From IMG/VR virus record IMGVR_UViG_3300017613_001587: a stretch of DNA of 64,000 bases, one strand, 5' to 3'. Positions 27,819-57,189 of the stretch are shown here, piece after piece. Source of the stretch: a virus. Its lineage: Duplodnaviria; Heunggongvirae; Uroviricota; Caudoviricetes. The stretch's first letter is position 1; the number at the start of each line of letters is the position of its first letter. The notes below the pieces were generated by a model. That model made no database searches. It was not told the origin of the DNA and saw only the letters and a list, made by a program, of their open reading frames with translations. The position numbers were made by a program, and so were the translations under genes.

Positions 27819-28472
27819 ATGAAGTCTGTATTATCCAAACAAGATATGCAGCATGTACTTGATGATCTCCGTTCTGATTATCATGTTATGCTATCCAAAC
27901 TCTCCAATGCCGACTGCCCAGCCAAGAAAAAGCGAGATGAGAAAGGATGTTTCGATGTTATCGGTAATGGCCCCGCTCCTGTTGCAGAGAACATAGCCAA
28001 AGCTAAGAAGTTTCTGAAAAAATATAGCGGAATCAAACAACCTAAGTTCCTGGACTGTGGCTGTGGTTTTGGCAACATTATGCTGATTGCTTATAGTCTC
28101 GGCTGCCATGCATATGGCATAGACCTCAATGAGCGTGCCTTGAAATTAGCACGATTGAATAAGGACAAGGGCAATGCTTGGTGCAGCCCCAGCCAACAAT
28201 TTGTCGTGTACCGCAGGGATATCCTGACTTATAAGGATTATGGTAAGTATGATATAGTATACTACTATTGTCCTATGAGGAACGGAAAGTTGGAGAGGCA
28301 GTTTGAACAGAAAGTTGCGGATGACATGCGTGTCGGGGCAGTCATATTACCGTTCTACTCTGTAAACACATTCATGAAAGACAAAAGGTTCGTCTGCCTT
28401 TGTGATCTGTTGCAAGAGGACAAAGAAAAGGAATACTTCAGCGGTCAAGTTATGCAAAAAATAAGAGATTAG
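27819..28472 (+). CDS. class I SAM-dependent methyltransferase
   Basis: Motif I FLDCGCGFGN with a downstream acidic residue; TAAGGAGGTACCACCAC-ATG. Confidence 0.6.
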   Translation: MKSVLSKQDMQHVLDDLRSDYHVMLSKLSNADCPAKKKRDEKGCFDVIGNGPAPVAENIAKAKKFLKKYSGIKQPKFLDCGCGFGNIMLIAYSLGCHAYGIDLNERALKLARLNKDKGNAWCSPSQQFVVYRRDILTYKDYGKYDIVYYYCPMRNGKLERQFEQKVADDMRVGAVILPFYSVNTFMKDKRFVCLCDLLQEDKEKEYFSGQVMQKIRD

Positions 28473-28483
28473 GAGGTCTTACC

Positions 28484-28981
28484 ATGAAAGATCCATTGAA
28501 TATTGGCAAATCAGCCGGTACGGGCACTCCCAACATCGGCACTCCGTCTCAGAATACCATCGGCAACAAAGTCTTTGATCTGCACTTTGAGGTCGGTGTT
28601 AACCCTAACCCCATGGGTGGATTCTATGCGTTGACTATCCTTGGGCAAGGGGGTGTAAAATTCGAATCTCAGGGCACTACTCCAGCAGATGCGCTCTCAA
28701 AGATCGTTGTAGATATGGAACAGTCCAATATGTGGCAGCTTATAGTTGGTAACCCTGGCATAAATCAGTTCCCTTTTCCTGCCAATCCGAGAAATGGCAA
28801 ACCGCCTGCTGCTGTACCAGTATCGTCAACCAACAGCGCATATGACCCTAAAGCACCCAAACAACGGCCTTCGGATCTGACACAGGTGACCCACCCTGAC
28901 TGCCAGACGATGTGTCAGTCATATGAACACTTCAAAGCAGCCAAATGCAAAAGCATTTGTGGCTTCCGGGATGGTCTCTAA
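28484..28981 (+). CDS. hypothetical protein
   Basis: TTAGGAGGTCTTACC-ATG. Confidence 0.45.
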   Translation: MKDPLNIGKSAGTGTPNIGTPSQNTIGNKVFDLHFEVGVNPNPMGGFYALTILGQGGVKFESQGTTPADALSKIVVDMEQSNMWQLIVGNPGINQFPFPANPRNGKPPAAVPVSSTNSAYDPKAPKQRPSDLTQVTHPDCQTMCQSYEHFKAAKCKSICGFRDGL

Positions 28982-29337
28982 TGGATATCTATACCGCACA
29001 CTATACATACAGTGGTGAAGATCGTATGGACATCACCGTTAAGGGTAATACCTTTCCAGGCAGTGTCTTTGCCCCCAAGTGGGAGATGGTGAAAGCCCTT
29101 CAAGCCCAGAAGATCGACAACTGGGAGTACACACTCCAGTACATGGGCCTGATGGCAGAGCGATGGTTCCATACCCCCGATGCCACTAATATGGCTATAC
29201 AAACTATGACGGAGAACCGTACGTCATTAACCCTGGTTTGCTTTTGCAAGCCTCAGACATTCTGCCATAGAATACTTGCTGCCCGATTGTTAGAGAGCAT
29301 GGGGCACGGTAAATATCATGGCGAAAGATTAACTTAG
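28981..29337 (+). CDS. hypothetical protein, possibly DUF488-like
   Basis: LTLVCFCKPQTFCHRILAARLL resembles the DUF488 C..C....CHR..L signature. Confidence 0.35.
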   Translation: MDIYTAHYTYSGEDRMDITVKGNTFPGSVFAPKWEMVKALQAQKIDNWEYTLQYMGLMAERWFHTPDATNMAIQTMTENRTSLTLVCFCKPQTFCHRILAARLLESMGHGKYHGERLT

Positions 29338-29354
29338 GGAAGGAGGTGTTAGTT

Positions 29355-29759
29355 ATGAGAGAGATCGAATGCAGGAAAGGATTTACCCTGGTTGAATTGC
29401 TGATCGTTCTTGCAATTCTTGCTATACTGGGTGCTCTGTTTATCCCCATGATTGATGGAAAAGCCCACGGCGCCGAACTCGGCCAATTCCTGTTAGCTGA
29501 GGATGATACCATAGCAGAAGTGGCACATGCTGCCCAAAGTGATCCGCATCAGACACTCACTATTCTGGTGTATGCAAAAACGTGGGACGTTGAGAAGGTA
29601 GATACTCTGCTGGACAAGGCTGCGGCGGTACAGGCTAAACTGATCAGCCACAGGATACCAGTCCACCGTATTAATCTGCATCTTGCCAATGAAGGCGGCC
29701 TGAAGGAAGACGGCACTACCGCACCGGCAAGCGATGGGGTATACATCTCACTGGATTAG
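29355..29759 (+). CDS. type IV pilin-like / pseudopilin protein
   Basis: AAGGAGGTG then ATG. MREIECRKG|FTLVELLIVLAILAILGALFIP is a prepilin motif with Glu at +5. Confidence 0.55.
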   Translation: MREIECRKGFTLVELLIVLAILAILGALFIPMIDGKAHGAELGQFLLAEDDTIAEVAHAAQSDPHQTLTILVYAKTWDVEKVDTLLDKAAAVQAKLISHRIPVHRINLHLANEGGLKEDGTTAPASDGVYISLD

Positions 29760-29969
29760 AGGGCGCCGAATGCATAAGCTGGTTTCGTTGGTAACGTTCT
29801 TACTGTTATTACTGACTATTTTGTTTGGTAATTAATGTCTGTTTGAGGAGACAGAGCAAAAGAAGTTAATTTACCTAACGCCCAAGAGGCAAGGAGGTGG
29901 CTATGCAACCTGCTGGCTGTAATGGCCAGCAACCCTACGGGGTTCTAACCTTAACGAAGGGAGACACCA

Positions 29970-30152
29970 ATGACTGAATTGGTAAAAGAGATCTTGTTAT
30001 GTCTTTTCGTGCTGAGTTGCTTCGGCGGCGCAGCTGTTTTCTTTGCAAACCAAAACAACAGCAACAACACACGGCAGAAGATCGAAGAGCGCTATCAGGC
30101 TCAACGATTGGCCGATGCTGAGGAAGTAGAAGATACCCTTAACCCTTACTAA
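29970..30152 (+). CDS. small membrane protein
   Basis: AAGGGAGACACCA-ATG. Confidence 0.4.
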   Translation: MTELVKEILLCLFVLSCFGGAAVFFANQNNSNNTRQKIEERYQAQRLADAEEVEDTLNPY

Positions 30153-30216
30153 CCCTTTTCCTATTTATTATAGTGTGCCCGCCATAACCTATTAACTTTT
30201 AAACAGGAGGTTTACC

Positions 30217-30774
30217 ATGACTTTAGGTGCAAAACTCGGAATCGCAGGTGGTGGATTAGTCGCCGTTATCGCGGTGGTAATCTTTGCAATGAGCATTTCT
30301 TACCAGAACGCCTACGAGCGGATCGACCAGGACATTCAGGCTCAATACAAAAAGATTGAGTCGAACTATGAGAAGATGTCCAGGATCATCCTGCAACAGG
30401 CCGGTATCGTCAACAAGTACTCCACTGATTTCAAGGAGATCTACAAGGGGATGATGACCGGGCGTTATGGCAAGGATGGCTCGAAGGCCATGTGGCAATG
30501 GATTAAAGAGCAGAATCCGCAGATCGACGCCAGCTTGTATGCCAAGCTGATGACGACGGTGGAAGCCCAAAGGACAACCTTTGACCGGGCCCAGCAGAAG
30601 GTGTCGTCCATGGTTGCAGAATCCAACAAGATGCTGAAGGTTGCCCCTTCTTCATGGTTTGTTGATGGGGAGATCAAGGAAGCTAAGATCGTCTCGTCCT
30701 CGCAAACCAAGGTGATTGTGGAAACCGGGATCGATGATACGTCCAACGATATCTTCGGCACTGATAAGAAGTAG
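30217..30774 (+). CDS. LemA-family membrane protein
   Basis: N-terminal transmembrane helix followed by a Y..Q..Y..I.....W..I repeat pattern typical of LemA (PF04011). Confidence 0.45.
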   Translation: MTLGAKLGIAGGGLVAVIAVVIFAMSISYQNAYERIDQDIQAQYKKIESNYEKMSRIILQQAGIVNKYSTDFKEIYKGMMTGRYGKDGSKAMWQWIKEQNPQIDASLYAKLMTTVEAQRTTFDRAQQKVSSMVAESNKMLKVAPSSWFVDGEIKEAKIVSSSQTKVIVETGIDDTSNDIFGTDKK

Positions 30775-30792
30775 CAACAATCTCGGAACGTG

Positions 30793-30830
30793 GAGGTTCG
30801 ATTCCTTCCGCTGGCCCCGCTGAGGTGGTG
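30793..30830 (+). other. tRNA 3'-half-like fragment (T-arm GGAGG-TTCGATT-CCTTC plus acceptor strand)
   Basis: It contains the GGTTCGATTCC T-loop consensus, but there is no matching 5' half upstream. Confidence 0.2.
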
Positions 30831-30877
30831 GTTAATACTGATGGTACGCGTTCCATAAACTCTTTTAAGGAGGACTT

Positions 30878-31168
30878 ATGTCCGAGAAAAATTTCGTAAG
30901 TCAGCACCTTACTGGCTGGATTATGGCCGGAGTGGCCCTTGTCACTGGCTTAGTGGTGAATGGTGTTTATTCCGCCCTAATTGCCCAAGGACAGGCGTAT
31001 GCCGCGGCCAACCAAGTGGATGACTCCATGGCCAGTTGGATGTTGCATCAACAGGCGTCCTACGGGGACGTTATTCCCAACCTGATTATTGGCGGCATGG
31101 TACTCGTTATCTTTCTATGCCTTTTACCAACCATCAAACATGCCTATAAACTGGCAACAACCGACTAG
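30878..31168 (+). CDS. membrane protein
   Basis: AAGGAGGACTT-ATG. Confidence 0.45.
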   Translation: MSEKNFVSQHLTGWIMAGVALVTGLVVNGVYSALIAQGQAYAAANQVDDSMASWMLHQQASYGDVIPNLIIGGMVLVIFLCLLPTIKHAYKLATTD

Positions 31169-31204
31169 TTTTTAACTGGTCAAATCTATTAAGGAGGTTT
31201 CATT

Positions 31205-32245
31205 ATGAAACGTTTTATCCAATTCTCAATCGTATGCGTCATCGCCGTCGGTTTTCTTTCCGCCTGCGGCCCGGCCAAAGTTGAGCAGTTCGTCAACATC
31301 GAAGCCAATGAAACGGCGTTTGTCGTTCCGTTGGAAGGTGCCACATCCAATCAGGGCAAGTTCATGTCGGAAGACTATCTGAACAAGGCCAAAGTCGCCA
31401 CCAAACGGGTCAGCCTGTCGCTGCGTAAGCACAGTACCGGCCGCCTGTGGATGTCCTACAAGTGGATTCCGACCGTCAAGGTCATTAAAGTTAACCGTCA
31501 GCCGGTAACTCGTGAATGGACTGGTAAAGCCGAAACCGGTACCAATCAGGCCAATGAGGCCCTGTGGGTGGAATCTTCAGACTCCATCGGATTTGGTGTG
31601 GGTGTTAATACCACGGCCATGGTCACCGAAGAAGATGCAGCCAAGTTTCTGTATTACTTCGCAGGTAAGAATCTGGCCTATGTGGTTGATCAGAATGTCC
31701 GCGGTAAGGTTAACTCGGTTCTGTCCCGCGAATTCGCATCTCATGAGCTGGAAAAAGGCCGTAAGATGAAGAATGAGATCTTTAAGATCGCCGCCGAAGA
31801 AACCATTAAAGACTTCGCCAAGATGGGCGTGACCATCACTAACTTAGGCCTGGCCGAAGGTCTGGTTTATGCTGATACTGAGATTCAGCAGGCCATCAAT
31901 GATAAGTTCAAAGCAGAGATGGACATCCAGATTCAGGAACAAACGAATAAAGCTCAGATTCAGATCAATGAGCGGAACGTTGCCATAGCCAAAGCGGCCG
32001 CTGACCAAAGGATCAAGAAAGCCGAAGGTGATATCGCTGTCCAAAAAGCAAAGGCTGATGCGGCCAAGAAGTTCGCCGAACAGATCGATGCTCGTACCAA
32101 ACAGGTTGAGCTGGAAATCCGCCGGATGGATGCCGAAGCCCGCTTGACCTTTGCCAAGAACATCAAACCCGGTGTATTACCGGCCAACATTATGCCCGAA
32201 GGCTCCGGCTTTCTGTTCGGTATGGATACCCAGCCGACTAAATAA
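31205..32245 (+). CDS. SPFH/band-7-domain lipoprotein
   Basis: Lipobox FLSACG; the C-terminal half (AEG..Q.A..A.A..I.AEAEA) is typical of SPFH. Confidence 0.45.
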   Translation: MKRFIQFSIVCVIAVGFLSACGPAKVEQFVNIEANETAFVVPLEGATSNQGKFMSEDYLNKAKVATKRVSLSLRKHSTGRLWMSYKWIPTVKVIKVNRQPVTREWTGKAETGTNQANEALWVESSDSIGFGVGVNTTAMVTEEDAAKFLYYFAGKNLAYVVDQNVRGKVNSVLSREFASHELEKGRKMKNEIFKIAAEETIKDFAKMGVTITNLGLAEGLVYADTEIQQAINDKFKAEMDIQIQEQTNKAQIQINERNVAIAKAAADQRIKKAEGDIAVQKAKADAAKKFAEQIDARTKQVELEIRRMDAEARLTFAKNIKPGVLPANIMPEGSGFLFGMDTQPTK

Positions 32246-32278
32246 TTGCAGCAGAGCGTAGAAAGCTACTGCGTTCTC

Positions 32279-32320
32279 CTACCCCTTGCGGTGCAGGGGG
32301 TAGGGCAATAATCTTTTGAG
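32279..32320 (+). terminator. hairpin CTACCCC..GGGGTAG plus a T-rich tract
   Basis: Inverted repeat seen after the stop codon. Confidence 0.4.
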
Positions 32321-32332
32321 GAGGTGTCTACC

Positions 32333-32608
32333 ATGTCAGGAATTTTGTGGTTCGCCTTACTGATTCCTTTTATTCTTGCGGGTGTCCTCTTGGGCATCCC
32401 CAGTCTGCGCCGTCGGACCGTGTGGTGGGAAATTGCCATACCGGTTGTCGCTACTGTGCTGACTGTTGCTCTTTGCCAAATGATCGCCGTGAATTCGGCC
32501 CTGAAGGACAAGGAGTATTGGGGACACATGAGTTACACCATAACTCATGAAGAACCGGCCGCCTACGATGGCGAATGCTCCGAAACCTATGCGTGCGGTG
32601 AAACCTGA
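32333..32608 (+). CDS. N-terminal segment of a Cys-rich membrane protein; ends at an in-frame TGA (32606-32608)
   Basis: TTGAGGAGGTGTCTACC-ATG. Two transmembrane helices, then DGECSETYACGET-TGA. Confidence 0.45.
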   Translation: MSGILWFALLIPFILAGVLLGIPSLRRRTVWWEIAIPVVATVLTVALCQMIAVNSALKDKEYWGHMSYTITHEEPAAYDGECSETYACGET

Positions 32609-32791
32609 AGTGGCTCTGGAAAGAACAGGTCCTGTTCTACAAAGTACTGTACGCGATACTACCACTGCATCAAGAACGATGGACGTGCTTGCTACATAAC
32701 TGATGACCGCGGTAACACATACCGGGTTTCATATGGTAAGTATAAGGAAATCGACAAGCGGTGGAAGAATAACCAGCATACCGAGAAGAAG

Positions 32792-33610
32792 ATGAAACGC
32801 TCGGACGGTGGATACAACACCGTAGGCGATAAGTACAATCGTCCTGGTTATGGCAGCCGACATATTGTCCACTGGGATCGAATCCCTAAATCGGCAGAAC
32901 CGATTGTACGTGAATACACGTATGAGAATCGGCTTCAGACCCAATCTCACTGGGGTAAAGTTAGTGAAGAGGATAGGGTCTTATTCGATGTTCATGATTA
33001 CCCCAGCGTGCCTGGCGGTTGGAGGTTAACCTCCGTGTTAACTAACGGTCCTGCATTCCGCAAGACTGATCAGCATCTTCAATACCTGAACGCCCAACTG
33101 AATACCAACAAGGGCGGTTATAAGAAGGTGCGGCTGTGGTTATTGATTTATGCCAAACAACCGCAGGAATCCGCCGAGCTGCAACGTGCCTACTGGAAGG
33201 GTGGTAATAAGAACGAGATCACCATCATGATTGGCACGAATGAAGACAAGGCTATCACCTGGGCAGACGTCATGAGCCATACTGACGAGAGTCAGGCCCT
33301 GCTTATCAATATCAGGGACAAGCTTCTTGTTGAAATGGCTAACGGTAAGGGTGGTTATAGCGGCAAACTTACCGATGACGAGCTGTTAAAGTTTTCAACG
33401 TGGTTGGGGGATGCTGTTCAAGCCGGATATACCAAGCCCGACTTCAAACAGTACGACTACATCCAGGTGGCACCTTCAATGTTCGCCATCGTCCTGTCCT
33501 ACATCATCGTCATTCTTGTTAATATTGGCGCTGGTGCCTTCGTTATTTACAATCCATGGCAGGAAGGCGGCAACCGCCGCCGTCGGCGAAGCAACTACCG
33601 ATACCGCTAA
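32792..33610 (+). CDS. C-terminal segment of the same protein, in the same frame as 32333-32608
   Basis: The 183 nt between the TGA and this ATG has no stop and no start codon in frame. It encodes Cys-rich SGSGKNRSCSTKYCTRYYHC. There is a C-terminal transmembrane helix. Confidence 0.5.
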   Translation: MKRSDGGYNTVGDKYNRPGYGSRHIVHWDRIPKSAEPIVREYTYENRLQTQSHWGKVSEEDRVLFDVHDYPSVPGGWRLTSVLTNGPAFRKTDQHLQYLNAQLNTNKGGYKKVRLWLLIYAKQPQESAELQRAYWKGGNKNEITIMIGTNEDKAITWADVMSHTDESQALLINIRDKLLVEMANGKGGYSGKLTDDELLKFSTWLGDAVQAGYTKPDFKQYDYIQVAPSMFAIVLSYIIVILVNIGAGAFVIYNPWQEGGNRRRRRSNYRYR

Positions 33611-33663
33611 ACCAAGCTTGGGAACCTAACGGGGGCCTTCGGGCCCCCAAACGGGGGTACAGA

Positions 33664-33777
33664 ATGTTTAAAAGTAAATTCGAAGTAATCTTGTTCATTG
33701 TCTTAGCAGTCGCTGCATTCTTTATGACTGTCGGCATCAACGAGGTATTTGCTTGTATGCTGCTTGTATCTGGATAA
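33664..33777 (+). CDS. small membrane protein
   Basis: GGGGGTACAGA-ATG. Confidence 0.3.
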   Translation: MFKSKFEVILFIVLAVAAFFMTVGINEVFACMLLVSG

Positions 33778-33833
33778 AGACCACAACGGGGGTCCATCTC
33801 GGGCCTCCAAAAAAATTTTCTAAGGGGGATGGT

Positions 33834-34073
33834 ATGCAGTTACTAACTTTTATGACCTACAATCAGGCCCTCATGTGGGATCGTTTTGAGCGCATGTTTG
33901 TTATCTGTGCCGCTGTGCTTGTAATAGCAATATTCGAGATCATGGTGGGTAGTGAAACGTACCTACTTACTTCAGTGACTACGATAATTGCCCAGTTCTT
34001 AGTCCTTAAATGCTGGGTAGATATGATTATGTTAAGTCGGCCCCATGAGAACTGCTGGGCCTTTAAGGAGTAG
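33834..34073 (+). CDS. membrane protein
   Basis: TAAGGGGGATGGT-ATG. Confidence 0.4.
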   Translation: MQLLTFMTYNQALMWDRFERMFVICAAVLVIAIFEIMVGSETYLLTSVTTIIAQFLVLKCWVDMIMLSRPHENCWAFKE

Positions 34074-34075
34074 CC

Positions 34076-34246
34076 ATGATGCTGCGAGTTGAAGCTCCCC
34101 ACTACGTTGCAGGAGTCATCTTTGATGGTCCCTATGCAACACACGCTGCACCTATCTTATACTGGATAGTGAAACAGCACAAGACACTTGAATGGTGTAT
34201 AAATTACTTCAACATGAAAGGATTTAAATTCAGTGTACATCCCTAA
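34076..34246 (+). CDS. small hypothetical protein (56 aa)
   Basis: ATG 3 nt after the upstream stop. Confidence 0.3.
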   Translation: MMLRVEAPHYVAGVIFDGPYATHAAPILYWIVKQHKTLEWCINYFNMKGFKFSVHP

Positions 34247-34413
34247 ATCAAGAATGCCTGCTTTAGCCCAGATGATAGGCTTTGTACTAGATGAACATCC
34301 AGAACCCGATGAATTTTTCAGTGCTGAAGACCTGGAGCTGTTCAGACAAATCCATGACAAAACCACACTGGTACAGCAAGGCGATGCTAACTTTCTAATG
34401 ATAGAGCAATACT

Positions 34414-34698
34414 ATGGACACAAACCCGAATCAGGCATATAAAGACCGTGAGCTTAAAGGCGGCGATGGTGTGATGATGACCGAGTACCAGCGGGTTATC
34501 ATTGAGCGTCAGTGCAAAAAGCATAATATATCTCTGATGCGCCTGACTACCAGAGCCTTGGGCTATCGTAAGAAAACAGCTGATATAACCCATATCGATG
34601 CGGCCCGCTGTATCATGATGGGGGCTGTATGGGGAAACTACGTAACTGCAGGGTATGAGCCCGAAAGGAGACTCAATGTCAAGAATAGTCATGAATGA
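34414..34698 (+). CDS. hypothetical protein with an N-terminal NPNQAYKDR motif
   Basis: ORF track. Confidence 0.4.
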   Translation: MDTNPNQAYKDRELKGGDGVMMTEYQRVIIERQCKKHNISLMRLTTRALGYRKKTADITHIDAARCIMMGAVWGNYVTAGYEPERRLNVKNSHE

Positions 34699-34879
34699 TG
34701 GAACATGGACAACCGTGCTTTGTGGTAAGTGCGACCTAGCACACAAGGTGTTATCAAAACATATCAAACCCCAGTCAAACTGTCCCTACTGCGACGAGTT
34801 TATTCATCTTACCAAATTGGAGGATGACCACGCCGCGGAGAAGAAAGAAGGCTGGAAAGACTGCGCGGAGGTGTCATAA
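34655..34879 (+). CDS. zinc-ribbon protein
   Basis: CGKC..CPYC. Confidence 0.4.
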   Translation: MSPKGDSMSRIVMNDGTWTTVLCGKCDLAHKVLSKHIKPQSNCPYCDEFIHLTKLEDDHAAEKKEGWKDCAEVS

Positions 34880-36216
34880 TGATCGGAACTTACCCACGCA
34901 AAGCCAAGTACACCAAGAAGACTAAGGACTTGCTGAAACTGGACAGCGAGTATATCTCTCCTTCATACACCCGTGACTATCCGTTTATTGTTGCCCATGC
35001 TCGTGATAGAGAGGTAAGAGATATAGATTATAATTTATATCTTGATTTCGGTGCTGGTATCGCTGTTACCTCTACCGGCCACTGTCACCCTGATGTCGTG
35101 CATGCTGTCAAAGAGCAAGCTAATAACTTTCTTCATATGTCTGGCACCGATTTCTTTTACGAGAATCAGATCAAACTGGCCGAGAAGCTCCAAAAGTATT
35201 GTTCTCAAAAGATGCCGGTATTCTATGGCAACTCTGGAGCTGAGGCAGTGGAAGCTGCCATGAAGATAGCCAGATTTCATACCCAGAAGCCTGGGTTTAT
35301 TGCTTTCACCGGCGCCTTCCATGGCCGCACCATGGGCGCCCTCTCCCTGACTGCCAGCAAGGCAGTACAGAGATCACGTTATCTGCCCTTACAGCCGGTA
35401 GCACATGTCCCTTACCCTAATTGTTATGACTGCCCCCTCGGTACCAACTCCCAACGCTGCGATAGTCATGGCAGCGTATGTGTAGACTACATCGACAGTG
35501 AAGTCCTCGGCAGAGGAGCCATGCCTGCATCTGATTGTGCAGCCCTGGTTATGGAACCTATACAGGGAGAGGGCGGTTATATCGTACCGCCACCTTTTTG
35601 GTTCAATGATATCCAAGCGCTTGCTGACTCACATGACCTACTAATTATCTGTGATGAGGTACAGGCAGGTGTTGGTCGTACTGGTGAGTTTTGGGCCCAT
35701 CAGAATTTCACTGGAACTGATGGCGACATCTTCATCCCTGACATTATCTGCTCGGCTAAGGGTATAGCCTCAGGCATGCCTCTTGGCGTCATGATGGCCA
35801 GGGTAGACTTGATGTATGGCTGGAAGCCTGGCTCACATGCCTCAACGTTCGGCGGCAATCCTGTATCCTGTGCAGCTGCCCTTGCTACTATCGATGTAAT
35901 CGAGAAAGAGGGATTGATGGACAATGCTGCTGTCATGGGCGCACACCTGGGTACAATGTTAGACTTAATGTATAAGGCCTGCGGCGTAACAGATAACCCC
36001 CGAGGTATGGGGCTTATGCGTGCTATTGACGTTCTGGGAGAGAACAAAAAGGGTACTTACAGAGACCAGGTTCTGATGAGATGTTTCGAAAAAGGGCTGA
36101 TCCTGCTTGGTTGTGGTAAAAGCGGTATCAGATTTTGCCCTGCACTTAATGTCACCACGGAGGAGGTGGACACCTGTGTACGCATACTCGAGGATACAAT
36201 TAACGAGATCATTTGA
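34879..36216 (+). CDS. class-III PLP-dependent aminotransferase (ArgD/GabT family)
   Basis: GSGAEAVE..LICDEVQAGVGRTG..SAKGIASGMPLG are the class-III aminotransferase motifs. Confidence 0.8.
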   Translation: MIGTYPRKAKYTKKTKDLLKLDSEYISPSYTRDYPFIVAHARDREVRDIDYNLYLDFGAGIAVTSTGHCHPDVVHAVKEQANNFLHMSGTDFFYENQIKLAEKLQKYCSQKMPVFYGNSGAEAVEAAMKIARFHTQKPGFIAFTGAFHGRTMGALSLTASKAVQRSRYLPLQPVAHVPYPNCYDCPLGTNSQRCDSHGSVCVDYIDSEVLGRGAMPASDCAALVMEPIQGEGGYIVPPPFWFNDIQALADSHDLLIICDEVQAGVGRTGEFWAHQNFTGTDGDIFIPDIICSAKGIASGMPLGVMMARVDLMYGWKPGSHASTFGGNPVSCAAALATIDVIEKEGLMDNAAVMGAHLGTMLDLMYKACGVTDNPRGMGLMRAIDVLGENKKGTYRDQVLMRCFEKGLILLGCGKSGIRFCPALNVTTEEVDTCVRILEDTINEII

Positions 36217-36268
36217 TCGTAAGGTCCTCCTTATATTCAGTGCCATAGTACTTGATGCTTTGGCTACT

Positions 36269-36505
36269 ATGTGGCTAATGCTGGTTTATGGGTATGGAGA
36301 GGTAAACCCGGCGTTGAACTGGGTGGCTGAAAACTGGAGCCCCTCTGGCATGGCCATAGCCAAGATAGCCTGGAGCCTTGCTTTGATGTCTATTGTAATG
36401 ATACGTAAGGAATTTCACAAATATATAGACTACCTAGTCATTGGTTACTTTATACTATATACTTTTGGCTGGGCGTCGCAATTAATTTGGGAAGTTATTC
36501 GTTAG
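36269..36505 (+). CDS. membrane protein
   Basis: Internal ATG of the ORF at 36107, which begins after the aminotransferase stop. Confidence 0.35.
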   Translation: MWLMLVYGYGEVNPALNWVAENWSPSGMAIAKIAWSLALMSIVMIRKEFHKYIDYLVIGYFILYTFGWASQLIWEVIR

Positions 36506-36556
36506 ACGAATCACTTTACAGTGATTTATCTTCAATAAATAACAGGAGGTGCTTCG

Positions 36557-36832
36557 ATGGACCCGGTAAACAAATGGCTAACAGTTATCATTTTATTTAT
36601 GTGCGGTGTGTTATTCGTCGGCTGGAATGCAGCCGGATCAGGCCGTTATGAGATGGAGGTAGCGCTCGTAGACGGTGCACAGACGGTGTTTGTCCTTGAT
36701 ACTAAGGACGGCGAAGTCAAGGCACAGGTAGTAGACAGTTCGGACCTTTATAACAACACTGGTCAAGCCTATGTCCGGCCCCATAAGGTATTCGAATGGC
36801 CGAGTGGTACTCAATACGGTAGGCGGTATTAA
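36557..36832 (+). CDS. secreted/membrane hypothetical protein
   Basis: ACAGGAGGTGCTTCG-ATG. Confidence 0.45.
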   Translation: MDPVNKWLTVIILFMCGVLFVGWNAAGSGRYEMEVALVDGAQTVFVLDTKDGEVKAQVVDSSDLYNNTGQAYVRPHKVFEWPSGTQYGRRY

Positions 36833-37251
36833 TGTTCATGCATACTGAATGGTTGGATGAACAATTCTGCACTCGGTGCTTGAGGCAGACAGAGCACGTA
36901 AAGTTCAGTTACGGAGAAGAGTGCACCATCACATGTCAATTCTGTCAAACGACTACGTCCGTTGTAGAGGAAGTAGAGGAAGCCGTGAAGAAAACCTTTA
37001 CAGTAATAGCGGTAGACGAACAATACAACAACCCCAAGCGCCGTATGGTCAAAGCGGAGATACGGGTAGAGTCTATGCCGGAAAGGTTTGGTGATCAAAA
37101 CGGCAAGACGGAAGATATTATGGTGCAATATCCTGCCTATGAGGACCAACACTTCACTGCTCAAGTTACTCCTGTAATAGGGAAAGACTTCAACTTTAAA
37201 GACGCCGCCAAAATTTCACTAGCGATAAAGCAATTTATCGGAAAGGAATAG
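36832..37251 (+). CDS. zinc-ribbon-domain protein
   Basis: CTRC..C..C at the N-terminus. Preferred over the antisense ORF at 36829-37164. Confidence 0.45.
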   Translation: MFMHTEWLDEQFCTRCLRQTEHVKFSYGEECTITCQFCQTTTSVVEEVEEAVKKTFTVIAVDEQYNNPKRRMVKAEIRVESMPERFGDQNGKTEDIMVQYPAYEDQHFTAQVTPVIGKDFNFKDAAKISLAIKQFIGKE

Positions 37252-37253
37252 CC

Positions 37254-37583
37254 ATGAATCTCAGAGGCATAAGATGGCGTAGGATAATCATACCGATAGT
37301 GTTGATAGCGCTGACGGTGTTTATATACCAGGGCTGGGCTGACTACAGCCAAAGGAAAACTGCCTATGAACAGTCGAAAGGCACATGGCAGAACGCTTAT
37401 GATAATGGCGTACTAATCAAAGAGACGGTTGAGAAGAAGGTGAGTGGCAACCATATCATTGAAGTCTCATACAGGCTGTATGATACAACTGGCGACGGCA
37501 TACCTGACTTCGAGATTGTATTAAAGTGGGGCAAGCCGACCTCATGGAAATACGCCGATGAGGAAGGTAAACCTTATGGCTGA
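37254..37583 (+). CDS. membrane protein
   Basis: ORF track. Confidence 0.45.
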   Translation: MNLRGIRWRRIIIPIVLIALTVFIYQGWADYSQRKTAYEQSKGTWQNAYDNGVLIKETVEKKVSGNHIIEVSYRLYDTTGDGIPDFEIVLKWGKPTSWKYADEEGKPYG

Positions 37584-37619
37584 GGCAACGAGTGCCAATA
37601 ATCCTGGAGGGATTACAAG

Positions 37620-38099
37620 ATGACTATCCTAAATATTCTTACCGTTGGTAATGACGGCGGTGTACTGTCCACTGAAACAGTAGACCTCACGAAAGCTGAC
37701 ATTCTTTCCTCGAAAATTCAGACGTTGATTGAGGATATGAAAGACACCTGTCATCACGTCGGCGGTGTCGGTTTAGCTGCAAACCAGGTAGGTGAGACTG
37801 CTAAGTTGTTTGTATACAAAGATCCCGCACCCTTCGGCGGATTCAAAACAATTATCAATCCGGTAATTCTTGCCGGAAGGAAAGGTAAGTTTAAGAGCAA
37901 AGGTGAGGGCTGCCTGAGTTTACCTGGCAGGCGCTTCACAGTGGTAAGACAAAAACAGCTGTGGGTCAATGGCCTCGACGAGAAAGGCGAGGAGATAGAA
38001 TTCATGACCAAAAGCAAACAACTCGCCAAGATCATCCAGCACGAAGTTGACCATCTATATGGTAGAACTATAGCTGACAAGGGCAAGGAGGTTACCTAA
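37620..38099 (+). CDS. def: peptide deformylase
   Basis: All three PDF motifs are present: GVGLAANQVG, EGCLSLPG and QHEVDHLYG. Confidence 0.85.
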   Translation: MTILNILTVGNDGGVLSTETVDLTKADILSSKIQTLIEDMKDTCHHVGGVGLAANQVGETAKLFVYKDPAPFGGFKTIINPVILAGRKGKFKSKGEGCLSLPGRRFTVVRQKQLWVNGLDEKGEEIEFMTKSKQLAKIIQHEVDHLYGRTIADKGKEVT

Positions 38100-45305: not shown

Positions 45306-45393
45306 GCCCCCGTAGCTCAGTGGAAGGCTAACGCCGCAGAGCATAGGACTTCTAATCCTTGTGCCGCAGGTTCGAATCCTGCCGGGGGTACCA
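45306..45393 (+). tRNA. tRNA-Arg(TCT)-like with a 10-nt insertion (mini-hairpin GGCTAACGCC) in the D-loop; CCA is encoded
   Basis: The cloverleaf was built by hand. The acceptor GCCCCCG/CGGGGGT and T-arm GCAGG-TTCGAAT-CCTGC are identical to the next tRNA. The anticodon loop is CTTCTAA. The D-loop is 20 nt. Confidence 0.55.
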
Positions 45394-45406: not shown

Positions 45407-45484
45407 GCCCCCGTAGCTCAGTGGATACAGAGCGCTCGGCTACGAACCGAGAGGTCGCAGGTTCGAATCCTGCCGGGGGTACCA
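45407..45484 (+). tRNA. tRNA-Arg(ACG)
   Basis: Canonical 78-nt cloverleaf with D-stem GCTC/GAGC, anticodon loop CTACGAA and T-loop TTCGAAT; ACCA at the 3' end. Confidence 0.8.
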
Positions 45485-50983: not shown

Positions 50984-52060
50984 ATGTACAATATTGGAGT
51001 TGTACCCGGCAAGTTTTTTCCACCACATAGAGGACACCTCAATCAGATCATTCGTGCGGCCACACAATGTAAAAAAGTATATGTAGTGGTATCTGATAAT
51101 GAGGACTTGGCATTGGACAAGTGCCGTAAGGACAACCTACCATTCATTCCTATCAAAACCCGAGCACTCTGGCTATCACTGGAGCTTCAGGGCATAGACC
51201 ACATCGAAGTATTGATGCTGGACGAGACCGGTATTCCTGCCTATCCTGATGGTAGTGTACAATGGTGTCAGATGCTCAGAACACTAATCGCCAACACAAT
51301 ACCTGGCGCCAGTAAGATAGATGTCATATTTGGCGGAGAAACTGAATACCAGGATACATATATGAAGCATATGCCTGGTACCGAGTATGATGTTTATGAC
51401 TACAAGCGTAGCCGTTATCCTGTCAGTGGTACTGAAGTACGTCTGGACTATCTTAAACACTGGGACTATATTCTTGGATCTGCCAGGGGATTCTTTGCCC
51501 GGCGGATACTCGTCACTGGTACTGAAAGCTGTGCCAAAAGCACGCTGGTTAAGTATTTAGCCAAGATCTTCCATACGTCCTGGTCAGAAGAGTACGGTAG
51601 GTACTATTCAGCAGATTATCTGGGAGGAAACGAGGATCTGTTTCAATTAGATGATTTCACACGTGTTGCCCGCATACAAGAGGCTCAGGATGAAGAGGCT
51701 CTGAAGAGTGCTAACCGGATCTGTTTCTTTGATTCCGATGCGGTGGTCACTCAATACTACTGCCATCTCTATACTGGCAGCCAGAACCCTCTGATTGAGA
51801 CGCACGTCAATCCTCAGAAGTACGATCTGGTCCTTATGATGGGCCCAACAGTTGGCTGGGTAGCGGATGGACTTCGCTTCAAGGGTGAGCAGGCGGATAG
51901 GGAGAGGCTGCATAAGAAACTGTTGTATATGTATCTTGACCGCGGCTTCAAGGATAAAATCATCGAGATCAACGATGACAACTATTCTGCTCGTTTAGCC
52001 AGAGCTACTGATTATGCTGATAAACTGGTGGCTGATCGTAAGTACATGAGCCGCTACTGA
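50984..52060 (+). CDS. nadR: NadR-like bifunctional NMN adenylyltransferase / ribosylnicotinamide kinase (no HTH domain)
   Basis: N-terminal GKFFPPHRGH (the nucleotidyltransferase HxGH motif) and C-terminal VTGTESCAKSTL P-loop, as in NadR. Confidence 0.7.
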   Translation: MYNIGVVPGKFFPPHRGHLNQIIRAATQCKKVYVVVSDNEDLALDKCRKDNLPFIPIKTRALWLSLELQGIDHIEVLMLDETGIPAYPDGSVQWCQMLRTLIANTIPGASKIDVIFGGETEYQDTYMKHMPGTEYDVYDYKRSRYPVSGTEVRLDYLKHWDYILGSARGFFARRILVTGTESCAKSTLVKYLAKIFHTSWSEEYGRYYSADYLGGNEDLFQLDDFTRVARIQEAQDEEALKSANRICFFDSDAVVTQYYCHLYTGSQNPLIETHVNPQKYDLVLMMGPTVGWVADGLRFKGEQADRERLHKKLLYMYLDRGFKDKIIEINDDNYSARLARATDYADKLVADRKYMSRY

Positions 52061-52069
52061 GGAGGAACA

Positions 52070-52273
52070 ATGGCAAATAATGAACCGCTATTAGAATCCA
52101 TAACGCACGGTCTTATGAACAATAAGGCCCCATTCGTATACACTGAGGCTGCTGCTCAACCAACTGATCCGCAGAGAAAGAAGATCGGTGTGGCGGCCTT
52201 TCAACTGACTGGTATATGTGTCTATCTGTATGAAGACGGTACCTGGGAGTGGCAAGACACAACTGGAGGATAG
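52070..52273 (+). CDS. hypothetical protein
   Basis: TGAGGAGGAACA-ATG. Confidence 0.4.
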   Translation: MANNEPLLESITHGLMNNKAPFVYTEAAAQPTDPQRKKIGVAAFQLTGICVYLYEDGTWEWQDTTGG

Positions 52274-52274
52274 T

Positions 52275-52535
52275 ATGAAGAAGTTAATTGCTGTATTGTT
52301 AATCCTATTGGTGCTGGCTGCAACACCAGCAGCTGCAAAAGTCTATCTTGTGGTAGCAACACTGGCTAACACCGGTGTCTCATCGTTTACCTTTGATTAT
52401 CATGAGGTAGAGGATATGGATCAGTGCCTGCGTATAGTAGATCGTGCTAAGATCAGTGTAGCGCAGGGCGGAGATGCCGAAGCGTCCATTGCAATTTACT
52501 GTGCGCCGGATAAAAGGGAGAAAGATCTTGACTGA
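52275..52535 (+). CDS. secreted protein with a signal peptide
   Basis: MKKLIAVLLILLVLAATPAAA. Confidence 0.4.
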   Translation: MKKLIAVLLILLVLAATPAAAKVYLVVATLANTGVSSFTFDYHEVEDMDQCLRIVDRAKISVAQGGDAEASIAIYCAPDKREKDLD

Positions 52536-52962
52536 ATATAAACTTGATGAGACGCCGTACCTGACGATAGATGCCATCATTGAGTACAATCGCAAGCTCA
52601 TCATTATCGAGCGTATGCATGACCCTCTGGGCTTAGCCTGGGTAGGTGGCTTCGTCGACCCAGGTGAAACCTGCAAACAGGCAGTGATCAGAGAGTGCGG
52701 TGAGGAAGTCAACCTTAAGGTAGATGTGATTGACCTTATAGGTATCTATGATGATCCTGAACGTGACCCACGAGGTCACCTGGTATCTATTGCTTATCTG
52801 TGCAAGGCTGTGGCGGGCACTCCGCGGCCTCAGGATGCAGAGGTTAAGAAGATTCATCAGGTCTCATTGGATGAAGCCTTGAAACTACATATGATAGCTG
52901 ACCATAGCCAGATGTTACTGGATGCTCTGGAACTGGCCGTGTTCGACAGGAGGCGGATATGA
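52528..52962 (+). CDS. Nudix hydrolase (ADP-ribose pyrophosphatase-like)
   Basis: Nudix box GGFVDPGETCKQAVIRECGEEVNL (GX5EX7REUXEEXGU). The start is uncertain: TTG at 52528 after AAGGGAG, or ATG at 52474. Confidence 0.7.
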   Translation: MTEYKLDETPYLTIDAIIEYNRKLIIIERMHDPLGLAWVGGFVDPGETCKQAVIRECGEEVNLKVDVIDLIGIYDDPERDPRGHLVSIAYLCKAVAGTPRPQDAEVKKIHQVSLDEALKLHMIADHSQMLLDALELAVFDRRRI

Positions 52963-53303
52963 CGGACGAAGAGAAAGAACTGGTTATTGAGAAGCTGCTG
53001 GAGTCCACTGAGATCAGAAAGATCTACGATACTTACATCATCAAAAGTATCCCGTTTGAGACCTGGGTCCGCGACACAACTGATCGTCTCTTAGCCCCAG
53101 CGCCAAACGTCGTGATAGATGCGGATGAAGTATTAGCCAAGGTAATGGGGGATAATAATGATGAAGGTTTTGCTATGATATACGGCACTTGTAAATACTG
53201 TGGTGAAACCGTAGACGACGATAACCTGGCCGAATTGGCCACCGAAGACATGGGTTTGATGTGCGAGCCCTGTTTCAATGAGAAGGAGGTGGGATCATCG
53301 TGA
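52959..53303 (+). CDS. hypothetical acidic protein
   Basis: ATGA overlap with the upstream stop. Confidence 0.45.
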   Translation: MTDEEKELVIEKLLESTEIRKIYDTYIIKSIPFETWVRDTTDRLLAPAPNVVIDADEVLAKVMGDNNDEGFAMIYGTCKYCGETVDDDNLAELATEDMGLMCEPCFNEKEVGSS

Positions 53304-53554
53304 GAGCACCAAACGCTAAACCAGAGCGGAATCGTATGATGCTCAGGCTGGCCATGAGAGGTTACAACTGTAAACAAATATCAAGTGTTTATGGATGTTC
53401 CAGTGGTAATGTGTTTGTTATAGTACGCCGTGAAGGAAATAAAATACTCCAGCCGCTTCGAGATGCCGAGATGAGTGGTATCAAACACAATCTAACTGTA
53501 AGTGAGCTTCGTAAGTTCAGAAACTATATCTTAGGGGAGTTACTCGATGATTAA
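53300..53554 (+). CDS. HTH DNA-binding protein (LuxR / sigma-region-4-like)
   Basis: ERNRMMLRLAMRGYNCKQISSVYGCSSGNVFVIVRR. Confidence 0.4.
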   Translation: MRAPNAKPERNRMMLRLAMRGYNCKQISSVYGCSSGNVFVIVRREGNKILQPLRDAEMSGIKHNLTVSELRKFRNYILGELLDD

Positions 53555-53987
53555 ACTTGGACTCGACCTACACGGCGTGATTGATGCTGCACCTAAGTTC
53601 TTTTCCACTATGGCAGGTCAGATGATAGACCGGGGACATGAGATCTATATTATTACTGGCCGTGAGGACTGTGAGGAGCTGAGGAGAGAGCTTAACGCAT
53701 GCAACATGGACTATAATGGTATACTATCTATTACTACCTATCAAAAGGGTCAGGGCGTTCCTATATCGTACCTTGATGGGCGGCTATCTCAGCCGATGAT
53801 GGACCCACAAATATGGAACCCGACAAAGGCTATGCTGTGCGCCACGGCGGGTATCGACATTATGATCGATGATTCCTCATTATATGAACCCTTCTTCAGG
53901 GACATTAAGACACAGTACATCGTTTATTCCGCTACCGTTATGGAGTGGCTAAACTTTATGTTTTATTGTGGAGGAACACAATTATGA
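53547..53987 (+). CDS. HAD-like hydrolase with an atypical motif I (DLHGV in place of DxDGx)
   Basis: LGLDLHGVID..IITG..MIDDS. Confidence 0.35.
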   Translation: MIKLGLDLHGVIDAAPKFFSTMAGQMIDRGHEIYIITGREDCEELRRELNACNMDYNGILSITTYQKGQGVPISYLDGRLSQPMMDPQIWNPTKAMLCATAGIDIMIDDSSLYEPFFRDIKTQYIVYSATVMEWLNFMFYCGGTQL

Positions 53988-54532
53988 AAAAGGTACTGAT
54001 TGTTGTTGACATGTTAAACGACTTCTGTCATCCGAATGGCGTTCTTGCCAAGTCCATCATAACCGATGAGCTCTATGCCCAGCCTATCCTGAAAAACGTG
54101 GTAGGGCTAGTGGAGATGTTCAGAGGCCAAGGCCTGCCCATCATATGGCTGGCTGATGCTCATGCCGAGGATGACAAAGAATTCGATCGTTTCCCAAAAC
54201 ATGCTGTTAAAGGCACCTGGGGAGCTGAAATCATCGGCGAACTCGGCCCTAAATACGTTGAGAGATCTTCGTCCGAGCTTGTCATCCCTAAAACACGCTA
54301 CAGCGGCTTCTTTGGCACCGACTTGGAATACCAACTGAGTCGACTTGCTCCAGCTGCCGTGGAAGTATGTGGTGTGTGTACCAGCATCTGCGTGATGGAC
54401 ACCGTAGGTGGGCTGGCCAACCGGGATTATGACATTCACGTTGATAAGTCCTGTGTTGCGGATTTTGACCCCGCAGGACATGAGGCTGCTCTGGCACGTA
54501 TGACCAATTTATACGGCGCTACGGTCGTCTAA
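53984..54532 (+). CDS. pncA: isochorismatase-family hydrolase, probably nicotinamidase PncA
   Basis: VLIVVDMLNDF..K.RYSGF..T.L...L..VEVCGVCTSICV is the cysteine-hydrolase fold. It sits immediately upstream of pncB. Confidence 0.6.
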   Translation: MKKVLIVVDMLNDFCHPNGVLAKSIITDELYAQPILKNVVGLVEMFRGQGLPIIWLADAHAEDDKEFDRFPKHAVKGTWGAEIIGELGPKYVERSSSELVIPKTRYSGFFGTDLEYQLSRLAPAAVEVCGVCTSICVMDTVGGLANRDYDIHVDKSCVADFDPAGHEAALARMTNLYGATVV

Positions 54533-54546
54533 GGAGGCTACAGACC

Positions 54547-55749
54547 ATGATTAAGAGTCTACTTGATACCGACTTTTATATCCTAACCATGATGCAGGCG
54601 ATATTCCATCGCTACACGAACGTCGACACCAAGTTCGAGTTTAAATGGCGGAACTGGGATGATATGCATTTCAATATCAAACTGGATGATTTTATCGGCC
54701 GCCTGAAGAAACGCCTGGATGCTCTATGTGAGCTCAGGATCACCAAGAATGAGATAGAGTTCCTGAAGACAGTTCCATTCTTTAAGGATGACTTTATCGA
54801 ATACCTGCGGCTGTTTCAACTTAACCGCGGGTACATTCATCCCTATAACCGGGACGGGCAGCTGGCCATTGATATTCACGGCCCGCTGTTGAATGTCATT
54901 CCGTTTGAGGTGCCGGTACTTGCCACTGTCAGTCAGTTATATACCAGCAGCAACGGCGAGATCGGTTTTAACTGGCAGAAGATGGGGCGAACTCTGCTCC
55001 GTGAGAAGCTTGACTACTTGGATTCCAATTTACATCGTGATATGAACTTCGGATTCGCGGACTTTGGTACTCGTAGGCGTGCCCACTACGATTGGCACAA
55101 AGAGCTTCTCGAAACTATCCTTAGCCATGAGCCTTGCCGTATGGTTGGTACCAGTAATGTGCATTTTGCCATGAAGTATGGTATCAAATATATCGGTACC
55201 ATGGCGCATCTTTGGTTCCAGATCCACCAGCAGTTGGGGCCCCGCCTCATAGACAGCCAACAAGCTGCTCTCCAGGCCTGGGCTAATGAGTATCGCGGTG
55301 AGCTGGGAATAGCTCTGTCAGACACACTCGGCTTTCGTACATTCCTGTGTGATTTTGACAGGTATTTTGCTTTATTATTCGATGGTTGTCGCCACGACTC
55401 TGGTGATCCGATCCGTTGGTGTGAGGCCCTCATCGATCATTACAAGAAGATGAGAATCGATCCCAAAACCAAGACGGCTGTCTTTAGCGATGGGTTGACA
55501 TTTCAGGTTGCTGTTGATTTATTCCTGAGATTTCAGAATCATATCAACACATCGTATGGTATTGGCACGTACTTGACCAATGATTGTGGCTTCAAGCCTC
55601 CACAGATTGTTATCAAGAATACGGAAACAAACGGTAAACCAACGGCCAAGATCTCTGATTCCCAGGGCAAAGGTATGTGTATGGATGATGATTTCGAGGC
55701 CTATCTCATGAAAGTCGTGGAGGAAAAGATCAATGGGTGTTATTCTTAG
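54547..55749 (+). CDS. pncB: nicotinate phosphoribosyltransferase
   Basis: Near-continuous agreement with E. coli PncB: LLDTDFY.LTMMQA, FGTRRR, VGTSN, MAH.WFQ.HQQ, QAAL.AW..EY...LGIALSD, RHDSGDP, VFSD.L, FGIGT.LT.D, KP.AKISDS.GK. Confidence 0.9.
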   Translation: MIKSLLDTDFYILTMMQAIFHRYTNVDTKFEFKWRNWDDMHFNIKLDDFIGRLKKRLDALCELRITKNEIEFLKTVPFFKDDFIEYLRLFQLNRGYIHPYNRDGQLAIDIHGPLLNVIPFEVPVLATVSQLYTSSNGEIGFNWQKMGRTLLREKLDYLDSNLHRDMNFGFADFGTRRRAHYDWHKELLETILSHEPCRMVGTSNVHFAMKYGIKYIGTMAHLWFQIHQQLGPRLIDSQQAALQAWANEYRGELGIALSDTLGFRTFLCDFDRYFALLFDGCRHDSGDPIRWCEALIDHYKKMRIDPKTKTAVFSDGLTFQVAVDLFLRFQNHINTSYGIGTYLTNDCGFKPPQIVIKNTETNGKPTAKISDSQGKGMCMDDDFEAYLMKVVEEKINGCYS

Positions 55750-56653: not shown

Positions 56654-56972
56654 TGTTATGAGAACGACGGTTCACGGTAAAAAGAGAATAAGAAAGCGAA
56701 TCGGGATCAAAAAGAAAGCCGTGGATAGGATGCGAGACGCTGCTTTTAGTAAGGGTGTGACTCACGCCCAGGCCAAAGGCCGTCTTTCCAGGTACTTTGA
56801 TAAACTATTCTTAGAACACGAAACTTGTAATAATATCCGAATGTATGCCAACTATGTTTGGATTTTTGCCGGTGAGACGCTCATTACAGTTTATCCAATA
56901 CCAACCAACCTGAAGAACAGCGCCATAGGTGCCCAAAGAAGGGAGAAAAATCGTGATATCGATAAAAGGTAA
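56646..56972 (+). CDS. hypothetical basic protein
   Basis: ORF track; overlaps the rtcB start. Confidence 0.4.
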   Translation: MVNVMRTTVHGKKRIRKRIGIKKKAVDRMRDAAFSKGVTHAQAKGRLSRYFDKLFLEHETCNNIRMYANYVWIFAGETLITVYPIPTNLKNSAIGAQRREKNRDIDKR

Positions 56973-57186: not shown

Positions 57187-57189
57187 ACT

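Follow-up and report, generated by a model that had tools for sequence, protein, structure and literature searches.

Viral selenoproteins have been described in poxviruses: a 2021 review lists the glutathione peroxidases of molluscum contagiosum and fowlpox viruses (PMC8310308), in which a virus-encoded UGA is read as selenocysteine (Sec) by the host machinery. In bacteria, the selenocysteine insertion sequence (SECIS) has a stem of 6-8 bp and a conserved G in the loop about 20 nt after the UGA (PMC4605307). Bacterial selenoprotein families have also been predicted from metagenomes on the basis of an in-frame TGA, homologs with Cys and a SECIS with a G in the apical loop (Zhang and Gladyshev, PMC1976440). 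Here we describe a gene at positions 32333-33610 (+ strand) of a 64,000-nt stretch of DNA, hereafter the window, from the IMG/VR record IMGVR_UViG_3300017613_001587, a virus of the Caudoviricetes. The gene encodes a membrane protein of the phrog_2087 family and is interrupted by one in-frame UGA at codon 92 (32606-32608), a predicted Sec codon, and a SECIS-like hairpin follows at 32622-32638. A gene for the RNA ligase RtcB in the same window carries a second candidate Sec codon.

The phage gene resembles the poxvirus genes in that the UGA is encoded by the virus and would be read as Sec by the host machinery, and, as in fowlpox, the element lies within the coding region. Whereas the poxviruses have eukaryotic hosts, a eukaryotic-type SECIS and host-captured genes, the candidates described here belong to a bacteriophage, have elements of the bacterial SelB type and fall in phrog_2087 and RtcB. 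The evidence is of the same type as that used for the metagenome-predicted bacterial families, with the difference that the genomic context here is viral. Phages with recoded stop codons (Lak and crAss-like phages, code 15 or 4) likewise have genes interrupted by a stop codon, and the Lak phages carry homologs of the present gene. Such phages reassign the codon throughout the genome or in late genes, whereas in the window TGA is a frequent stop and only two Cys-equivalent positions appear to be recoded. In the literature that we searched, the coverage of which is incomplete so that an earlier description may exist elsewhere, there is no report of a phage-encoded selenoprotein, nor of a phrog_2087 protein or RtcB as a selenoprotein.

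Among bacterial elements, the comparison is with that of Escherichia coli fdhF, which in 5,419 E. coli genomes consists of the UGA, 11 nt and GGUUGCA-GGUC-UGCACC, the loop starting at +19. Both UGA140 of fdhF and the UGA of the phage gene occupy a Cys-equivalent position, with a hairpin within the coding region directly 3'. They share the apical loop CA-GGUC with its A-U closing pair, and the first G of the loop is at +19 in fdhF and at +20 here. The fdhF GCA-GGUC-UGC corresponds to ACA-GGUC(C/A)-UGU in the phage gene, the loop of which is of the fdhF type. The E. coli genomes bear out the likeness in spacing and loop to which the initial annotation of this DNA had pointed. The two elements differ in the spacer, which is 13 nt in the phage gene and 11 nt in fdhF, and in the stem, which is a perfect 6-7 bp helix in the phage gene but contains a bulged U in fdhF. 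The phage loop comprises 5 nt (GGUCC or GGUCA) once the closing G-C pair opens, and there is no long lower stem, unlike in fdhF. The gene itself, unlike fdhF, is phage-borne and encodes an unrelated membrane protein.

The interrupted gene and its homologs

The initial annotation took the open reading frames (ORFs) 32333-32608 and 32792-33610 for one gene broken only by the TGA. The frame from ATG 32333, which has a Shine-Dalgarno-like GAGGAGG 8 nt on its 5' side as read from the sequence (32318-32324, +), is open past the TGA as far as TAA 33608-33610 and, joined, gives a protein of 425 aa. The 61 codons from the UGA to ATG 32792 (32609-32791, +) contain no stop and no ATG, GTG or TTG, just as had been described, and ATG 32792 is the first start codon after the TGA. 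The joined protein matches the phrog_2087 profile over residues 5-405 (profile positions 3-353 of 360, E=1.1e-33). At least 15 full-length homologs of 420-430 aa with 65-76% identity are present in the protein database, and tblastn detected unbroken homologs in Lak megaphages, Tenacibaculum phages, Ackermannviridae, phage G and others. Homologs begin with MSGILWF, consistent with ATG 32333 as the start. These continuous single-gene homologs support the reading as one gene.

Several database homologs are only about 272 aa long. Their contigs show a 91-codon ORF, a TGA and then a 183-nt gap. Gene callers split the locus at the TGA in every assembly examined, and comparable genes in other viromes may therefore go unnoticed. 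GenBank also splits the homolog of Serratia phage phiMAM1 (JX878496.1, about 4000-5086), as MAM_007 and MAM_006 with an unannotated gap. Recoding was considered for this homolog and rejected; its reading frame is continuous and has Cys at the equivalent position, and the split is therefore a gene-calling artefact. The window belongs to an uncultured large phage, on a contig of 102-108 kb from Joint Genome Institute (JGI) sample 3300017527, and the same sequence was found in three assemblies of this phage. A megablast of 28000-38000 against GenBank phages gave no match. Scans of the IMG/VR and GTDB genomes returned only relatives of at most 31% identity, which are unsuitable for codon-level comparison.

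The TGA at codon 92 is present in the DNA of six lineages with 56-81% amino-acid identity to one another: the window (L001); L002; L003-L008 with L093, which comprises 16 contigs from several samples; L089 with L090; L092; and L172. A search with the N-terminal fragment yielded ten clusters at 90% identity, all ending in CG(E/Q/T)(T/S) directly before codon 92, and in six of the ten the stop codon was confirmed by DNA. Between lineages, synonymous sites are saturated, with proportions of synonymous differences (pS) of 0.57-0.93. The proportion of nonsynonymous differences (pN) in the 61 codons after the UGA is 0.10-0.22, equal to that of the coding sequence on both flanks. Sequence comparison thus indicates that the codons after the UGA are translated and under strong purifying selection.

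The position of the UGA is occupied by Cys, encoded by TGT or TGC, in the homologs P0017, P0019, P0021, P0023 and P0026 and in phage phiMAM1. P0017 reads ETCSGSGANRSCS around this Cys. The joined protein accordingly has homologs that are both continuous and furnished with Cys where the window has UGA, in keeping with the initial annotation. In L094 (50% identity) there are two TGAs five codons apart (CGET-U-TKNS-U-TTNYC, at 1647-1649 and 1662-1664), the second of which replaces the next Cys of the motif; this double UGA was seen in one contig only. In L173-L175 (about 42% identity) a TGA stands at another conserved Cys (YDDE-U-SETY, L173:9830-9832). With the RtcB gene described below included, there are four UGA sites in two unrelated proteins, and at all of them the UGA stands in place of a conserved Cys. 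Recurrent interchange of UGA and Cys at a conserved Cys is the classical signature of a selenoprotein and one of the criteria used for the metagenome-predicted families (PMC1976440).

Two features of the codon context were also seen. The base at +4 is A at every candidate Sec UGA, at five independent sites (32609 and 57187 of the window, L094, L173 and L176-L179), and this A may reflect a context requirement. The Ser that follows the candidate Sec UGA is encoded by AGT rather than TCN, whereas the Cys forms have T at that base (TCT or TCA).

Hairpins downstream of the UGA codons

The perfect hairpin AGAACAG-GTC-CTGTTCT lies where the initial annotation had placed it, at 32622-32638 (+), and begins 13 nt past the UGA. 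Its stem is formed by 32622-32628 with 32632-32638, the apical GGUC(C) occupies 32628-32632, and the loop G falls at +20/+21. Of random positions in the window, 0.4% have a perfect hairpin with a stem of 7 bp or more that begins 8-22 nt further on, and 1.9% have one with a stem of 6 bp or more. Over the seven pairs in the six UGA-form sequences, 97.6% of the cells are paired, and sliding the 3' partner by 1-3 columns lowers the value to 17-48%. Two pairs show compensatory double changes, from A-U to C-G and from A-U to G-C. Each of these combines an amino-acid change in the 5' arm with a synonymous change in the 3' arm (Ser TCT to TCG; Cys TGT to TGC). The UGA forms pair at 6-7 of the 7 positions and the Cys forms at 3-4 of the 7 in the same columns, the loop being represented in the Cys forms by ATC, AAT or CTC. 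On these alignments, the hairpin is lost in the Cys forms. The Arg codon AGG is invariant, and the Ser after it is encoded by TCC in five UGA forms and by TCA in the sixth, L172. The TCA of L172 opens the closing G-C pair, so that the loop can be described as GGUC followed by any nucleotide and closed by A-U.

For three UGA forms (L002:304-336, L089:2566-2598 and L172:9911-9943), RNAfold favours an alternative fold in which UGAAC pairs with GUUCG of the 3' arm. This pairing is impossible in the window, L003 and L092.

The more distant UGA sites have hairpins of other sequence. That of L094, UGUACC-AGGUG-GGUACA, lies 3' of the second UGA, and that of L173, UGUCUG-CGGGA-CAGACA, begins 11 nt past its UGA. 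The three UGA sites thus have three different hairpins, the loop G's of which all fall at +19 to +21. The hairpins at the UGA sites of this family fit the rule for bacterial SECIS elements given above (PMC4605307). As a separate observation, L094 has a single hairpin, that 3' of the second UGA, for its two UGAs.

RtcB, encoded at about 56953-58290 (+), is a second candidate phage selenoprotein, with the same sequence signature at its metal-ligand Cys. The Pfam RtcB family matches the joined protein end to end (E=8.6e-48), and this is probably the other single-UGA gene mentioned in the initial annotation. The predicted Sec codon at 57184-57186 (+) replaces the Cys of VGVDIG-C-xM, the window having VGVDIG-U-TM and full-length homologs VGVDIG-C-NM. 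In RtcB, the Cys at this position is a metal ligand. The UGA aligns with the Cys of DINCG in Thermus thermophilus RtcB (PDB 2epg). The TGA was confirmed by DNA in L176-L179, and the split at this codon recurs in at least 14 clusters of close homologs. A candidate SECIS hairpin, UCCAGA-AGUU-UCUGGA (57206-57221, +), stands 19 nt past the UGA. The underlying TTC CAG AAG TTT CTG GAT TTC is invariant, including its synonymous sites, in four distinct UGA forms of RtcB. A Cys form (L216) has the same amino acids with Leu encoded by TTA instead of CTG and a weaker stem. RtcB has Cys in the L003 and L173 lineages, in L173 on the very contig that bears the YDDE-U-SETY gene. The Sec/Cys exchanges in the two genes are therefore independent.

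Selenocysteine and the alternative decodings

Elsewhere in the window TGA is a normal stop. Among 75 + strand ORFs of at least 100 aa, the stop codon is TAA in 31, TGA in 26 and TAG in 18. The genes ending in TGA include Pfam-complete ones, among them that for the aminotransferase at 34879-36216. Convincing coding sequence flanks an in-frame TGA on both sides at two places in the window only, 32606 and 57184, and further in-frame TGAs, sought in the window and in seven related loci, were not found outside these two genes. The recoding is thus local rather than a global change of the code, as the initial annotation had maintained.

Taken together, the in-frame TGA, the Cys homologs and the hairpin with its loop G match the published criteria for new bacterial selenoproteins (PMC1976440). 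We read 32333-33610 as one phage gene, with Sec inserted at UGA codon 92 by way of host SelB and Sec-tRNA(Sec), and, on the sequence evidence, assign this reading a probability of roughly 0.8. The hairpin that begins 13 nt past the UGA would carry at its apex a GGUC(N) loop, about 20 nt from the codon. SelB would bind this loop and, competing with RF2, supply the A site with Sec-tRNA(Sec), and translation would then continue to TAA 33608-33610. The decoding mechanism so described is the known bacterial one. Local UGA recoding with an fdhF-like SECIS and Cys in the homologs, as first proposed for this gene, has held up, with the UGA conserved and the hairpin showing compensatory changes.

Several results weigh against this reading. 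The observed covariation was equalled in 17 of 500 shuffles, and it is based on only six sequences. Single-sequence folding is not significant, with z = -0.25 to -0.87 for the window and from +0.23 to -2.38 for the hairpins of the UGA forms. The hairpin is thus supported by the comparison of sequences and not by thermodynamics. An E-value search of 32560-32720 against Rfam found no SECIS family, the only match being Plant_U3 on the opposite strand (E=1.4), and the comparison with covariance models suggested in the initial annotation therefore gave no SECIS match. This test carries little weight, because a 17-nt hairpin holds too little information for significance. None of the six sequences has a bulged U like that of E. 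coli fdhF. In E. coli, a bulged U in the upper stem is needed for SelB binding. The RtcB hairpin departs from the others, as its loop is AGUU, its spacing is longer and its G is at +27. Lastly, neither tRNA-Sec nor SelA, SelB or SelD was found in the window and the 10 kb beyond it, the proteins of the window having been only partly scanned. That search consisted of tRNA and Rfam scans, with precomputed Pfam labels for the extension, and covered 74 kb of the 108.5-kb contig. The machinery would, on our reading, be that of the host.

The lack of Sec machinery in the phage DNA examined would also fit programmed readthrough, in which the UGA would occasionally be decoded by a near-cognate tRNA (Trp, Cys or Arg), with the hairpin as a stimulator rather than a SECIS. 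The conserved UGA, the translated codons downstream and the conserved hairpin are compatible with such readthrough, and the A at +4 of every UGA site could be its context signal. The UGAs, however, sit only at conserved Cys positions, and at the metal-ligand Cys of RtcB an inserted Trp or Arg would probably inactivate the enzyme. The geometry is moreover exactly that of a SECIS. To our knowledge, hairpin-stimulated readthrough is not an established bacterial mechanism. We regard readthrough as unlikely.

An opal suppressor tRNA of phage or host, for example a tRNA-Cys with a UCA anticodon, could read the UGA without SelB. A Cys suppressor would fit the correspondence of UGA and Cys, the phage does carry tRNA genes, and such a tRNA could lie in the roughly 34 kb of the 108.5-kb contig beyond the DNA examined, or in any further part of the genome. 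The tRNAs seen are nevertheless Arg(ACG) at 45407-45481 and Arg(UCU) in the window and Pro(UGG) in the 10-kb extension; L172 has two tRNA-Ser. ARAGORN and Rfam found no tRNA with a UCA anticodon and no Sec tRNA in the window, L213 and 16 related loci, and a scan of the window at the Rfam gathering threshold gave two tRNAs only. With a suppressor, the phage genes that end in TGA, about one third, would be read through as well, and both the selection for a hairpin at a fixed distance and the loss of the hairpin in the Cys forms would be left unexplained. A suppressor is in our view a still less probable explanation.

As a side observation on the tRNA genes, that at 45306-45390 (+) was missed by ARAGORN and scored 60.9 bits with Rfam. 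Its anticodon loop CUUCUAA gives the anticodon UCU (Arg, AGA). An insertion of 15 nt enlarges the D-loop, and in the acceptor and T arms this tRNA is nearly identical to the tRNA-Arg(ACG) at 45407-45481.

That the TGA is a true stop is very improbable. The locus would then hold two genes, one for a two-helix peptide of 91 aa and one for a protein of 272 aa that begins at ATG 32792, or else a pseudogene or a sequencing error. The split is annotated by gene callers in every assembly, and a purine-rich stretch precedes ATG 32792. Against this stand the 61 intervening codons, which are under strong purifying selection and offer no start codon, and the homologs, which are single genes and in many of which the Met of ATG 32792 is Ile. 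Neither an error nor a recent pseudogene is compatible with a TGA that is identical across six lineages and several samples, and this TGA, together with the low pN against saturated pS, also excludes two independent genes. Least credible of all is a genome-wide reassignment of UGA, to Trp (code 4) or Gly (code 25), which would suit a protein family with relatives in the Lak phages, known for stop-codon recoding, but is contradicted by the 26 of 75 long + strand ORFs, Pfam-complete genes among them, that terminate in TGA, by the absence of any coherent gene lengthening in a qualitative reading of TGA as sense, and by the position of the only two coding in-frame TGAs at Cys rather than Trp or Gly.

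If the UGA is decoded as Sec, the consequences reach beyond this locus. We favour, with clearly less confidence than the decoding itself, a wider reading in which these sequences are the first evidence for phage selenoproteins. A clade of large phages from sediment would use host SelB and tRNA-Sec to make two or more proteins, namely a TPM-domain protein that spans the envelope and an RtcB RNA ligase with Sec for the metal-binding Cys, with repeated exchange of Sec and Cys at several positions of a Cys ladder and, in one lineage, a natural diselenide. Phages would then be able to exploit the 21st-amino-acid machinery of their hosts. The Sec trait is patchily distributed among bacteria, and selenium availability and the Sec trait of the host would become determinants of phage host range and fitness. 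Two new selenoprotein families would be added, including an RtcB with Sec at the catalytic metal site, which bears on the known oxidation sensitivity of the enzyme. Because its loop resembles that of fdhF, the element lends itself to direct tests in E. coli reporter systems.

Protein architecture and neighbouring genes

The product would be a three-pass membrane protein with an extracytoplasmic, Cys-stapled beta-hairpin stalk and a domain of the TPM fold. The architecture was derived from the sequence and from an AlphaFold model of the Cys homolog P0017, built on a 101-sequence alignment with a predicted local distance difference test (pLDDT) score of 95.4 and a predicted template modelling (pTM) score of 0.85. 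The model has helices at 2-20, 30-56 and 380-403, long beta-hairpins and an alpha/beta domain. In the window, two N-terminal transmembrane helices (about residues 4-23 and 33-53) with an Arg-rich loop between them are predicted at 32342-32491 (+), and a C-terminal transmembrane helix with an Arg-rich cytoplasmic tail at 33473-33607 (+). Based on the Arg-rich segments and the positive-inside rule, the stalk and the TPM domain would lie outside the cytoplasm.

The UGA lies in a Cys-rich segment at 32573-32689 (+), which reads ECSETYACGET-U-SGSGKNRSCSTKYCTRYYHC and continues in the same manner. From the alignment and the model, it is predicted to form a long beta-hairpin with a ladder of Cys and Sec. 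In P0017, strands 75-92 and 99-115 run antiparallel with a turn at SGSGAN; Cys 81, 87 and 91 are on the first strand and Cys 100, 105 and 111 on the second. The strand register in the model suggests a Cys ladder of 91-100, 87-105 and 81-111. Sec would be at the tip of the stalk. In the Cys homologs the residue at its position most likely forms a disulfide with the Cys nine residues downstream, and in the Sec form the partner would most likely be this same Cys, that of RSCS, in a selenylsulfide. The protein may have a redox role. The CxxxU motif of the initial annotation is present in the sequence, but the partner of Sec suggested by the model is the Cys nine residues downstream, in preference to the Cys four residues upstream. 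In L094, the two UGAs are at predicted bonding positions across the tip of the hairpin and would form a diselenide.

The extracytoplasmic alpha/beta domain, with approximate limits of 33030-33450 (+), has the TPM fold in the model. The TPM model of Pfam (PF04536) did not match, and no Pfam family was found at E<=1 with the joined protein or at E<=10 with its C-terminal part. The bacterial TPM-domain proteins (TLP18.3/Psb32/MOLO-1 fold; BA41, Rhom172 and PG_0361) are thus without a Pfam-level sequence match to the phage protein. Unlike them, the phage protein has two extra N-terminal helices and a long beta-hairpin stalk stapled by Cys and Sec.

The genes on the 5' side had been described as a LemA and SPFH-lipoprotein module. 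The LemA label was rejected for the upstream gene at 30217-30774, which shows no Pfam LemA match even at E<=10 and matches phrog_1383, a 'virion structural protein'. In bacteria, TPM genes often adjoin LemA. Given this adjacency and the TPM fold of the recoded protein, the upstream gene may have a remote relationship to LemA. The 346-aa neighbour at 31205-32245 matches a PHROG 'lipoprotein' family, in agreement with the second half of the description, whereas its SPFH character is limited to a sub-threshold Band_7 match.

Directly upstream of RtcB lies a cluster for nicotinamide adenine dinucleotide (NAD) salvage at 50984-56653, the order of which is kept in L176-L179. It encodes a NadR-like protein (50984-52060; AAA_28 and a sub-threshold cytidylyltransferase-like match), an isochorismatase-family protein (from the Pfam label precomputed for the L213 counterpart), NAPRTase (54547-55749) and NAD synthase (55733-56653). 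At the other locus, a terminator-like hairpin GGGGGCC-TTCG-GGCCCCC, with no clear T run, is located at 33633-33650, 23 nt past the TAA of the phrog_2087 gene. A similar stem, TACCCC...GGGGTA, is found 5' of the gene at 32280-32302.

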